Shown: positions 33,923 through 42,694 of the stretch, one piece after another
Layout: every line of letters starts with the position of its first letter
Numbering within the stretch: the stretch's first letter is position 1
Source: Eledone cirrhosa
Taxonomy: Eukaryota
Assembly (NCBI GenBank): GCA_964016885.1
Contig: CAXHJY010000483.1
Coordinates: forward strand, 1 to 42,694
DNA: 42,694 nucleotides
Reading direction: 5' to 3'
Notes under the pieces: generated by a model
Databases searched by the model: none
What the model saw: the letters and a program-made list of their open reading frames with translations, nothing else
What the model was told of the DNA's origin: nothing
Translations under genes and position numbers: made by a program

Positions 33923-34315
33923 TATATTAATAAGAGGAATTCCAACTTTGTCTGATTTACTCGTTTTATTTACAATCCTTTAAAATATATAATGGTATTA
34001 TAATGAAATAGTATGATAGAATATTAAATTCTAAGTGTTAATTGAACAAGTACTTTCATGCTTTCGCAATCTTCAGGTTCATAATATGTGGTGACAGTCA
34101 AGTTTGCAATTTTCAACACAGTTGAAAATTGCAAACTTGACTGTCACCACATATTATGAACCTGAAGATTGCGAAAGCATGAAAGTACTTGTTCAATTAA
34201 CACTTAGAATTTAATATTCTATCATACTATTTCATTATAATACCATTATATATTTTAAAGGATTGTAAATAAAACGAGTAAATCAGACAAAGTTGGAATT
34301 CCTCTTATTAATATA
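33923..34315. mobile_element. Palindromic PLE-end element (about 195-bp arms, 3-nt spacer) with two outward-facing hammerheads
   Basis: Arms appear to be exact reverse complements about ACA at 34118-34120; microsatellite flanks. Confidence 0.9.
34157..34195 (+). ncRNA. Minimal hammerhead (mirror copy at 34043-34081, - strand)
   Basis: TGAAC-CTGAAGA-tTGC gaaa GCAt-GAAA-GTAC-TT-GTTCA; the palindromic stem III is typical of dimer-acting PLE hammerheads. Confidence 0.8.
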
Positions 34316-34564
34316 ATCTTCTATACACAATCATACACACCCGTGTATATTTACCTATCTATATCTATATATATATATATATATATGTATATATATATAT
34401 ATATAACAAAGGAATTGTGGTAAGGAACCAGATGGACCATAACGCACCAGAGTACTCAATACTTAGGGTAGTAGAGTGGGAAATAGGAAAAGGTATGACC
34501 CCGTCGGGGTCATACCTTTCCCTATAAATATAAATATATATATATATATATATATATATATATC

Positions 34565-34945
34565 AACGCTTATGTGTACCTCTCAAAATTCGTTGGATTT
34601 TCTAATTGGATTTTCACCCTGAAACTGGATACCAACCCGGAGTACTCCTGAACTTCCACCAGGAAATCTTTTGTATCATTGAAATTTTCTTTGCTTCTTG
34701 CATTTAAATATTCCACGACTCTCTACCACTTTTCCTCTACTACAATCTTCTTACACCTCCTTCTTCTTCTCACCCATCTATTTTCCCCTCCCACCCTAGT
34801 ACCTTCAATATGCCCAATCTCAAACATTTTCTATTCCAACCCGCCCGTCCCTTCAATCTATCTTATTTCTCATTCTTTCTTCTGATGAAGGACTAGCGTC
34901 CAAAACGTTAAGACCCTCTTCCTGCTATATCAAGCATTAACCTAA
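34565..34945 (+). mobile_element. PLE 3' remnant with degenerate hammerhead at 34877-34913
   Basis: A NWIFTLK stretch resembles the WIxxLxT..P.GLN end of PLE endonucleases; a pyrimidine-rich UTR follows; then TCTT-CTGATGA-aGGAC tagc GTCC-AAAA-CG-TT-AAGA, in which GAAA has become AAAA. Confidence 0.55.
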
Positions 34946-35109
34946 TATATTCCTTCCATATACTGTACTGATTGTGTTGTTATTTCTGTTTAGCTTTTAC
35001 ATACATATATATAAGATATATATATATATATATATATATATGTTAGGTAATTCCGAAGGAAAAGCAAAGGAAAAAGAGTGCTCTATGTATAGAACAGAGC
35101 TATTTAATT

Positions 35110-35336
35110 AGAAAGTGAACAACAAAAAATATAACTACTCCATTACCAAAGGTTTCTGGATCCCAGACAATAATAATATACGTCTGGATCGGTCATCAGA
35201 CAGGGATGTTATGAATAAAAAATATTTTTATCCATAACATCCCTGTCTGATGACAGATCCTGACGTATATTATTATTGTCTGAGATCCAGAAACCTTTGG
35301 TAATGGAGTAGTTATATATTTTGTTGTTCACTTTCT
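35110..35336. mobile_element. Palindromic PLE-end element (about 110-bp arms) with hammerhead motifs at 35140-35203 (-) and 35243-35306 (+)
   Basis: Inverted arms with a few mismatches; CTGT-CTGATGA-long stem II-GAAA-CC ttt GG-TA-ATGG. The left arm extends about 70 bp further to (TA)n. Confidence 0.8.
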
Positions 35337-35577
35337 GAAAAAAAAAAAATTTATATATACACACTCATATGAACATGTATACATCCACACATATATACAA
35401 ACACACACACATATATATAGAGATATGCATAGACACATACACACAGACACACACACATATATGTATATATATCATCATTATCGTTTAATGTTCATCTGCC
35501 ACACTAGCATGGGTTGGACAGGATTATCCCACGTCTGGCTGGTTTTCTACAGCTGGATGTCCTTCATAACACCAACC

Positions 35578-36022
35578 ACATTTACAGTGTGGACTGGGAG
35601 CCTTTTTACCATGTCACCTGCATGATCACTTTACAGTGTGGCTTGGGTGCTTTTTGCTGAGACACCTACACGACCACTTTACAGTGTGGACTAGGTGCTT
35701 TTTGTTGTGACACCTACACGACCACTTTACAGTGTGGACTGGGTGCTTTTTGTTGTGACACCTACACGACCATTTTACAGTGTGGACTGGGTGCTTTTTG
35801 TTGTGACACCTACACGACCATTTTACAGTGTGGACTAGGTGCTTTTTGTTGTGACACCTACACGATCACTTTACAGTGTGGCCTGGGTGCTTTTTGTTGT
35901 GACACCTACATGACCACTTTACAGAGTGGCCTGGGTGCTTTTTGTTGTGACACCTACACCACCACTTTACAGTGTGGACTGGGTGCTTTTTGTTGTGACA
36001 CCTACACCACCACTTTACAGTG
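35578..36022. repeat. 48-bp minisatellite, about 9 copies, derived from the retroposon 5' part
   Basis: TTTACAGTGTGGACTGGGTGCTTTTTGTTGTGACACCTACACGACCAC, the reverse complement of the motif at 32885-32975. Confidence 0.93.
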
Positions 36023-36180
36023 TAGATGTTCTGTGGTTCCAACATAACTTTACACACATATATACATACCCACATACACACACAAGTGCACTAGAAAGGT
36101 TGTTATATTTGACACAACTAAAGAGTCCTCTCAACACTTTGTTTGACAAGATTTCTACAGCTGGACGCCCTTCCTATCAT

Positions 36181-39546: not shown

Positions 39547-41682
39547 ATATATATAAATATATATATATAAATATATATATATAAATATATATATATAAAT
39601 ATATATATATATAAATATATACATATATATATAAATATATATATATAAATATATACATATATATATAAATATATATATATAAATATATATATATAAATAT
39701 ATATATATAAATATATATATACATACATACATATATATATATATATATATATATATATATATATATATATATATATACATATATAAATATATATATATAT
39801 ACATACATATATATATATATATATATATATACATACATATATATATATATAAATATATATATATATATATATATACATACATATATATATAAATATATAT
39901 ATATATATATATACATACATATATATATATATATATAAATATATATATATATATATATATACATACATATATATATATATATATAAATATATATATATAT
40001 ATATATACATACATATATATATATATATATATATATAAATATATATATATATATATATATATATATATACATACATATATATATATATATATATATATAA
40101 ATATATATATATATATATATATATATAAATATATATATATATACATACATATATATATATATATATATACATACATATATATATATATATATATATATAA
40201 ATATATATATATATATATATAAATATATATATATATACATACATATATATATATATATATACATACATATATATATATATATACATATATATATATATAT
40301 ATATATACATACATATATATATATATATATATATATATACATACATATATATATATATATATATATATATATACATACATATATATATATATATATATAT
40401 ATATATATATATATATATATATATATATATACATACATACATACATATATATACATATATATATATATATATATATATATATACATACATACATACATAT
40501 ATATACATATATATATATATATATATATATATATATATATATACATACATACATATATATATATATATATATATATATATATATATATATATAATATATA
40601 TATACATACATACATATATATATATATATATATATATATATATACATACATACATACATACATATATATATATATATATATATATATATATACATACATA
40701 CATACATACATATATATATATATATATATATATATATATATATATATATATATATACATACATATATATATATATATATATATATATATATATATATATA
40801 CATACATACATATATATATATATAAATATATATATATAAATATATATATACATATATATATATATATATATATATATATATATATATATATATATATATA
40901 TATATATAAATATATATATACATATATATATATATATATATATATAAATATATATATACATATATATATATATATATATATAAATATATATATACATACA
41001 TACATATATATATATACATACATACATATATATATATACATACATACATATATATACATACATACATATATATATATATATACATATATATATATATACA
41101 TACATACATACATATATATATACATAATATATATACATACATACATACATATATATATATACATACATACATACATATATATATACATACATACATACAT
41201 ATATATATATATATATACATACATACATATATATATACATACATACATATATATATATATATACATACATACATATATATATACATACATACATATATAT
41301 ATATATATATATACATACATATATATATATATATATATACATACATATATATATATATATATATACATACATATACATATATATATATATATATATACAT
41401 ACATATACATATATATATATATATATATATACATACATATACATATATATATATATATTATATATATACATACATATACATATATATATATATATATATA
41501 CATATATATATATATATATACATACATATACATATATATATATATATATATATATATATACATACATATACATATATATATATACATATATATATATATA
41601 TATATATATATATACATACATACATACATACATATATATATATATACATACATACATATATATATATATATATATATATATA
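39541..41682. repeat. 2.1-kb (TA)n/(TACA)n microsatellite
   Basis: Direct reading; it generates the spurious 600-730 aa YI ORFs. Confidence 0.98.
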
Positions 41683-41772
41683 GGAGGTGAGTTTTTATTG
41701 TAGTACAATAAAGCAATGCAGATATCGGATAAGAAGCACTCTACAGTTTTGTAGGACTGGGAGTATTACATA

Positions 41773-42134
41773 ATATATAAGATCAAAAGATGGTTAAAGG
41801 AGTTCCATGTATTTTATTATGCGCATTTCAAAAAACAAACATCATCATGCAATAATATTTGTGTTTTTCATCAGATAAAACAGGAGGGGACATGATATGA
41901 AGGCTAAAAAAACACTTGTGGATAGTGCAGTTTTAAATCAACATATATATTGTATGTATATATGTTGATTTAAAAACTGCACTATCCACAAGTGTTTTTT
42001 TAGCCTTCATATCATGTCCTCCTGTTTTTATCTGATGAAAAACACAAATATTATTGCATGATGATGTTTGTTTTTTGAAATGCGCATAATAAAATACATG
42101 GAACTCCCTTTAACCATCTTTTGATCTTATATAT
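41773..42134. mobile_element. Palindromic PLE-end element (about 175-bp arms) with two outward-facing hammerheads
   Basis: Inverted arms around a short spacer near 41950-41956; the left arm extends about 90 bp to (TA)n. Confidence 0.88.
42026..42094 (+). ncRNA. Type I hammerhead (mirror copy at 41812-41880, - strand)
   Basis: TTTTAT-CTGATGA-AAAA..CAAATA...TGTTTG TTTT..-GAAA-TGCGCA-TA-ATAAAA; palindromic stem III. Confidence 0.8.
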
Positions 42135-42430
42135 ATATATATATAATATATATAATATATATATATATATATATATATATATATATATATATATATATAT
42201 ATATATATATTTCGTTTTCTGAATTTGTTTAGCAAGATTCTTTATCTGAAATCGTGTGTTGAAACCGATATTGTTTATACTTTGGGAGGGGTCATGTTGC
42301 CAATAAGAAAACCACCCGCACCAGTTGCTTTCACTTCAATTTAATTTAATATATATTTATAAATTTACAAATTTATAAATTTCTGGTTGGTTGGTTGGTT
42401 CCACAACCAGATAGTTGTTTATATATATAT

Positions 42431-42475
42431 AGTCATAGTTCTTTCGTCACACACTCTGTGACCTCTTCAGTGACT
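42431..42475 (-). ncRNA. Minimal hammerhead upstream of a palindrome centred near 42612
   Basis: Reverse complement: AGTCA-CTGAAGA-gGTCACA gagtg TGTGAC-GAAA-GAAC-TA-TGACT. Confidence 0.78.
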
Positions 42476-42530
42476 GGGGGATTTCCTTTCTTCGTTTCTG
42501 TGCCTTTCCTTTCTTCTATCCTACGCCATT

Positions 42531-42694
42531 TTGTTTGTGTGTGGGTTGCGTGCTCAGTTTGCGCATGCGCCACATCCGGGTGTCTGTGTGTGTGTTTGTG
42601 TTCATTTTTTCTAGAAAAATGAACACAAACACACACAGACACCCGGATTGTGGGCGCATGCGCAAAACTGAGCACGCAACCCACACACAAACAA
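42531..42694. repeat. Inverted repeat centred on TTTTTCTAGAAAAA, truncated by the window end
   Basis: 42613-42694 is the near-exact reverse complement of 42531-42612. Confidence 0.9.

Follow-up and report, generated by a model that had tools for sequence, protein, structure and literature searches.

Hammerhead-bearing palindromes of an Eledone cirrhosa contig as probable two-ended insertions of Penelope-like elements

The window analysed here is the whole of contig CAXHJY010000483.1 of Eledone cirrhosa (assembly GCA_964016885.1), 42694 nt in length. Its last part contains five palindromes (P1 to P5) in (TA)n-type sequence, and their arms carry hammerhead ribozymes that face outward. Each palindrome is probably one insertion of a Penelope-like element (PLE), in which both cut ends of the (TA)n target primed on the sense RNA at two fixed sites and the two complementary DNAs (cDNAs) were joined head to head. 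This reading is favoured because the ends are fixed with one for each arm, the arms face outward, the centres are variable, and the copies stop sharply at two positions. As a part of the same reading, the outward-facing ribozymes are probably a geometric by-product of priming. The architecture is known and ordinary for PLEs, and the families are new.

The self-BLAST of the window gave inverted repeats at 33923-34315 (P1, 99% arm identity), 35110-35336 (P2, 94%), 37440-39546 (P3, 100% over a 709-nt stretch and 97% over the inner 357 nt), 41773-42134 (P4, 95%), and 42531-42694 (P5, 93%). P5 is incomplete because the window is the whole contig, which ends inside it. A first-pass annotation of the sequence had described five unrelated palindromes. 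Indeed, the self-BLAST found no cross-matches among the five, and their families have nothing in common except the hammerhead core. The nine hammerheads were found with a type I hammerhead descriptor where the annotation had placed them, on the minus strand in left arms and on the plus strand in right arms (Table 1). The descriptor matched 12 times in the window, far above 50 block shuffles (mean 0.08, maximum 1). The ribozymes are minimal type I hammerheads with the core CUGANGA...GAAA...UH, stems I and II, and a stem III of 1-3 bp. An Rfam scan of the window (E<=1) showed no hammerhead family among the 150 of 216 matches listed, and those listed were rejected as microRNA-like chance matches on hairpins. 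The left arm of P5, formerly started at 42431, was corrected to about 42207. Two further solo hammerheads adjoin (TA)n at 864-923 and 4368-4433 (minus), and their stem III resembles that of family 2. Palindromes or inverted repeats without a descriptor match are found at 7270-7570, 7139-7223, 20044-20301, and 5820-6851.

The families are abundant in the 3.0-Gb genome. The exact 34-mer of the P1 hammerhead had 5349 matches, and the hammerhead motifs of P3 and P5 had 703 and 8629. For families 2 and 4, the exact patterns gave 2 and 5 matches and DNA searches gave at least 52 and at least 58 scored matches, respectively. Full units were located through tandem motif matches 4-5 kb apart. The family 1 unit is 4202 nt long and has an overlapping upstream open reading frame (ORF), followed by an ORF for a reverse transcriptase (RT) and a GIY-YIG endonuclease with a CX4CxxC linker (Pfam RVT_1, E 2.9e-6; GIY-YIG, E 3.3e-6). 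The family 5 unit (4.08 kb) matched RVT_1 (E 6.4e-4), showed a GIY-YIG-like motif by eye, and matched family 1 in BLASTP. The family 3 unit (4.9 kb) has a single ORF with no Pfam match, and its RT and endonuclease were assigned by motifs alone, namely RWR (for RWK), DKT, and CxCX5C. In family 4, a family-3-like endonuclease region lies upstream in two loci (L200 and L211; E 3e-27 and 6e-9). For family 2, no same-strand upstream RT or endonuclease match was found in 28 loci of 3 kb. Partial tandems of the pattern pLTR-ORF-pLTR, with a hammerhead in the pseudo-long terminal repeat (pLTR), were seen at L031, L032, L126, L138, L148, and L149. An inverted 5'-truncated copy with a tail on one end was found in all five families. 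The insertions lie in (TA)n, where a target site duplication is unreadable. Judged by sequence, families 1, 3, 4, and 5 trace to endonuclease-positive PLEs, and family 2 has PLE-like ends with no linked ORF; clade labels are based on motifs, not on a tree. The PLE origin supposed by the annotation is borne out for four of the five families. Composite palindromes, with one hammerhead family inside the end of another, occur at L046 (about 1325-1480) and L039 (about 1148-1271).

The orientation and the ends of the arms are regular. Pairs of opposite-strand neighbours within 10 kb were counted by eye in the first 100 matches listed for each of families 1, 3, and 5. All of the 62 pairs were outward (24, 22, and 16) and none was inward, as the annotation had expected genome-wide. 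Families 2 and 4 gave 12 outward pairs each among 28 loci, including two duplicate loci in family 4. The one inward pair, in L199 with 1.2 kb between its members, is apparently the product of two independent insertions. Two fixed 3' ends follow the predicted hammerhead cut in each family, at +129 and +190 in family 1, +51 and +145 in family 3, and +162 and +222 in family 5, and families 2 and 4 likewise have two. Each two-armed insertion has both of these ends, one per arm, apart from a single exception described below. The end without the tail lies 60-94 nt upstream of the tail end. The longer arm, which is on the right side in P1 and on the left side in P2 to P5, is the one with the PLE tail. 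In P2, the right end enters an A tract before TA. The distance between the hammerheads ranges from 47 nt to 8.4 kb. Among the first 30 family-5 matches, 11 insertions were resolved, and in 4 of these the partner arm has no hammerhead; the same holds for 7 family-2 or family-4 loci among 56 fetched.

In the proposed mechanism, the GIY-YIG endonuclease and RT would cut both strands of the (TA)n target. One target end would prime at the far site and give the tail arm, and the other would prime 60-94 nt upstream and give the tail-less arm. The arms face outward because two target 3' ends can yield no other layout. Both ends would usually copy the same sense RNA. When both cDNAs run off the RNA 5' end, either the predicted start or the cut, a near-perfect palindrome would result, and a lopsided insertion would result when one cDNA halts early. 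The cDNA ends would be sealed by 1-11 nt of microhomology or by short templated filler.

The annotation had proposed a common fold-back step at integration. If a strand folds back, the second arm is nested in the first, so that the tail arm must reach furthest in the 5' direction. Arm lengths were determined by hand in 71 two-armed insertions (25, 23, and 23 from families 1, 3, and 5). The arms were symmetric within 10 nt in 21 insertions, the tail arm was longer in 31, and the tail-less arm was longer in 19. The symmetric insertions exceeded permutation in all three families (P<0.0001, 0.034, and 0.0017). The nested-arm expectation is therefore violated in 19 of 50 asymmetric insertions. In four insertions (L079, L062, L160, and L179) the arms share no sequence, and the partner is the tail sequence alone. 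In L031 and L126, the tail-less arm bears a whole extra unit. The junctions have overlaps of 1-11 nt or short filler that is often copied from nearby; the centre of P4 holds, in element terms, about 13 nt of TA-like filler. Because some arms are non-nested and some disjoint, two priming events are needed. A common step at integration is supported, and fold-back as that general step is not.

The centres of the palindromes point to the template. Family-1 centres were counted genome-wide with patterns of equal design in four windows. The window around unit base 4130 had 968 palindromes, that around the predicted hammerhead cut had 56, and the two control windows had 8 and 12; the comparison is rough, as the anchors differ in mutability. 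A TATA box, TATAAAAG, is placed at -31 relative to base 4130. This is the usual spacing for a polymerase II start, and base 4130 is taken as the predicted transcription start of family 1. In 29 of 32 start-centred loci the arms reach this base, and none goes beyond. Among 38 cut-centred loci, none extends further than 4 nt past the cut, with 19 nt permitted by the pattern; these loci were 15 supplied and 23 picked from those listed, and perfect palindromes centred at +5 to +7, which numbered 8 among the 50 cut-window matches listed, were omitted. Of the first 15 loci centred at the cut, 14 are short and L049/L218 has two full units. The palindrome of L049/L027 (contig C1, 21872.0-21880.7 kb) is 8.7 kb long and 99.9% identical, and comprises a pair of full-length family-1 units that meet at the predicted hammerhead cut, with a tail at one end and none at the other. 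Locus L076 begins about 15 nt before the cut. Within the window, P1 is centred at the predicted start and P4 at the common 5' end of its family. The centre of P3 is near a looser cluster with no clear TATA, and those of P2 and P5 are off the main clusters.

The start-centred arms span the cut and were therefore made from uncut RNA. Accordingly, about 95% of the end-centred family-1 palindromes derive from uncut RNA and about 5% stop at the cut. The pile-ups suggest a sense template and a weak but real cut by the ribozyme in vivo. Terminal bases were retained by the tail arm versus the tail-less arm at 19:14 and 16:11, and the terminal base was present on both arms at the junction in 4 of 70 loci. 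By eye, the two arms agreed in allele at a variable site in 49 of the 50 palindromes listed with centres at the start. One junction was the commonest among these 50, with 22 cases; it was seen with each of the two alleles, and the tail could lie to its left or right. We infer that the two cDNAs were each copied out to a shared 5' end of a sense RNA. A stall of the RT at hammerhead stem I was rejected as the origin of the cut-centred class, since 21 of the 38 loci extend to unit base 0 or 1 and a further 7 to -1 or -3, beyond the base of the stem at about +7. An additional, cap-derived G at the junctions centred on the start was also considered, and the cases were too few. The 5' ends of family 5 cluster at L138 unit bases 3978-3994, and L138 bases about 3935-4000 are a possible TATA-less promoter. 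Motifs beside this cluster resemble what we take to be ETS, NRF1, and YY1 sites.

A more specific form of the reading has, in our estimate, about an even chance of being right. In this form, a dimer of the PLE RT-endonuclease copies one sense RNA from both cut ends at two start sites, in at least two clades. The centres would then be a fossil map of RNA 5' ends, to the base for the family-1 start, and the minimal hammerhead, although almost without activity in vitro, would cut in the germ line in about 1/20 templates, including full-length RNA (L049). Several points weigh against two-ended priming or its details, in addition to the roughness of the census. The excess of longer tail arms (31 versus 19) has P=0.12 against 50:50. 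Most of the 71 insertions were selected for a hammerhead in both arms, and the set excludes some 17 family-1 loci in which the partner was broken or unseen. The family-1 start is predicted from the TATA spacing alone, and family 3 has no TATA near its 5' end cluster. The shared alleles may also reflect one dominant source copy or conversion between arms. One family-2 insertion (L167) has two tails. In a study of an anole PLE, no RNA reads ended at the hammerhead cut and cutting was not needed in vitro (PMC11167929).

A mixed route is unlikely but accommodates every insertion with overlapping arms, which is a further point against the preferred reading. Here, the first cDNA would fold back at the centre to serve as its own template, and the far end would be supplied or met by another priming event, from the opposite end of the target. 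This route accounts for the shared alleles and for the slight surplus of insertions with a longer tail arm, and some junctions fit it, such as one at the cut where a 3-bp stem would close a 5-nt loop. However, it is unable to produce the four insertions with non-overlapping arms. The commonest start-centred junction would require a 1-nt loop, and the presence of the terminal base on both arms at some junctions also speaks against it. Pure fold-back, in which one strand snaps back and the second arm copies the first, is quite improbable. It agrees with the spacers of 0-7 nt in the window and with arms that are 94-100% alike; in four of five palindromes the two arms match each other no less closely than the best further copy fetched. 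However, besides the broken nesting and the disjoint arms, the centres correspond to 5' ends of sense RNA (TATA at -31 and the hammerhead cut) and not to 3' ends of antisense. It is largely refuted as the general route and could persist for a subset of the symmetric copies.

The annotation had also supposed that the antisense arm of a read-through transcript sequesters the ribozyme and spares the host pre-mRNA. The sequestration is supported in silico, where 95-99.9% of the hammerhead bases pair in P1, P2, and P4. It is very improbable, nevertheless, that selection has kept the paired layout for silencing the ribozyme in host pre-mRNA. In its favour, folding predicts full sequestration, and the cluster is probably intronic in a plus-strand gene with a GT donor at 32685. 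Within this probable intron there is a single solo hammerhead in sense orientation, at 34882; its core carries G12A, whereas five other copies retain G. An exclusion of retrozymes from introns is reported in the abstract of a preprint (10.64898/2026.07.22.740005). However, priming geometry suffices for the orientation, hammerheads without a paired partner are common, and the G12A case is a single one. Stem I had a probability of 0.02, 0.00, and 0.47 in folding even in lone arms, and a minimal PLE hammerhead monomer showed no detectable cleavage (PMC4209133). Host-sparing is unnecessary as the reason for the layout. The self-cleavage of transcripts born at the centre, another earlier proposal, is doubtful. 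The TATA 31 nt upstream of the centre is uncopied, and the start-centred palindromes from uncut RNA outnumber the cut-centred ones by 968 to 56.

An artefact of assembly or chimeric reads is extremely improbable. The contig is small and ends inside P5, and the P3 centre is bridged by no contig or read in four sequencing runs; over 33850-35400 and 38400-38600 the read coverage is repeat-dominated. However, the mirroring halts at element-defined ends with one tail for each insertion, the flanking arrays are unmirrored, and the two arms are up to 6% divergent. Contigs of chromosome scale show this layout as well, and in an independent-sample contig (X5) an inverted arm is joined at the P1 start position, which is support at the family level. 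That the palindromes are units like miniature inverted-repeat transposable elements moving whole is scarcely credible: a single centre sequence is shared by 22 of the 50 family-1 palindromes listed, but these include either allele and have their tail to the left or right, and the hammerhead spacing across centres is widely variable.

Two-ended priming resembles the twin priming of L1, in which priming of the same RNA by the second target strand gives an inversion sealed by microhomology. The halves of L1 come from different parts of the RNA, whereas the two cDNAs here begin within 60-94 nt of each other and cover one stretch, so that a palindrome results. An inverted 5'-truncated copy by the 5' end, with a tail at one end, is described for PLEs, and its formation is listed as unexplained (PMC8557442). 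Palindromes at head-to-head junctions were explained by self-priming on an antisense template (PMC3846280). Pen2a_Av (PMC3846280; PMC8557442) has the same head-to-head inverted arm, junction palindrome, and tail at one end, as well as a TATA and initiator in the pLTR and simple AT-rich targets. Its tails are 30-40 nt, versus 60-94 nt here, and the thousands of mini-copies here permit a test that contradicts the 2013 antisense model. Minimal hammerheads in pLTRs, with opposite-strand pairs 100-700 bp apart, were reported together with one tested hammerhead and with a note that evidence of cutting in vivo is lacking (PMC4209133). The protein of Poseidon of Anolis (PAc) cuts and extends both strands in vitro at AT-rich sites, two internal RNA start sites define the tail, and uncut RNA is the main template (PMC11167929), all of them features that the present reading shares. 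That paper does not address inverted arms and uses the word 'inverted' once, for the dT block, and its absence of reads at the cut differs from the 5% of end-centred palindromes here. It was the only paper found since 2023 for a PLE dimer or both-strand cutting.

Family 3 is like the Hydra-clade PLEs (PMC8557442) in RWR for RWK, DKT, CxCX5C, a single ORF, hammerheads, and (TA)n targets, and the endonuclease region of family 4 is related. The Hydra-clade units are shorter than 3 kb, whereas that of family 3 has a long 3' region, and the placement is by motifs alone. Families 1 and 5 resemble Neptune and Nematis PLEs, again by motifs, in a DKG-type motif and CX2-5CxxC before a C-terminal GIY-YIG; family 1 also shares the overlapping upstream ORF. 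Non-LTR retrozymes (PMC7229834; 10.64898/2026.07.22.740005) share the type I hammerheads and the PLE connection. They differ in having tandem non-coding hammerhead monomers, which are absent at the five sites, and four families here come from coding PLEs. A two-ended priming model for such PLE palindromes was not found in the literature searched, with subscription papers and supplements outside the search; the supplements of PMC8557442 may already list these families. The copies discriminate the published antisense self-priming from two-ended priming and favour the latter, and they give exact start, cut, and priming coordinates. The formation of tandem and inverted PLE structures was named as open (PMC8557442), and the copies whose arms stop at the predicted cut are indirect evidence of ribozyme cutting in vivo.

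Table 1. Arms, hammerheads, and target array of the five palindromes in the window (positions after the cut are marked +).
Feature	Position	Strand	Remarks
P1 left arm, family 1, tail-less	33923..34117	-	end at +129 from the cut; begins 3 nt inside the predicted start of transcription
P1 minimal type I hammerhead	34043..34081	-	descriptor
P1 right arm	34118..34380	+	predicted transcription start to +190; tail about 34316-34376
P1 minimal hammerhead	34157..34195	+	predicted cut after 34190
P2 left arm, family 2	35042..35221	-	tail 35042-35109; hammerhead 35140-35203
P2 right arm, tail-less	35223..35336	+	hammerhead 35243-35306
P3 left arm, family 3, Hydra-type motifs	37346..38492	-	tail 37346-37439 (+145 end); hammerhead 37487-37532
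P3 right arm, tail-less (+51 end)	38497..39546	+	hammerhead 39454-39499
P4 left arm, family 4	41683..41949	-	tail about 41683-41772; hammerhead 41810-41882
P4 right arm, tail-less	41955..42134	+	hammerhead 42026-42094
P5 left arm, family 5	42207..42607	-	tail about 42207-42266 (+222 end); hammerhead 42431-42475
P5 right arm	42612..42694	+	contig ends before its hammerhead
2.1-kb (TA)n-type array, target of P3 and P4	39542..41682	.	same strand sense as array 37148-37347

The array at 39542-41682 has the same strand sense as that at 37148-37347 and is therefore not its mirror. By splice signals and frame, a host gene on the plus strand probably has two in-frame exons at 28499-30112 and 32499-32684. 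The first has about 16 copies of a 17-residue repeat (51-nt unit) and the second looks coiled-coil; neither gave a curated Pfam match. A solo plus-strand copy of a further hammerhead family lies at 34565-35000, with its core G12 changed to A at 34902, and 3' end fragments of this family are at about 32720-32870 and 33130-33180. Another small head-to-head insertion, the sixth, occupies 34406-34525, with a tail arm of about 100 nt and a short arm of about 20 nt. Its family is abundant, with 49 matches among the fetched loci, and longer copies have a hammerhead-like stem II and a degenerate core.

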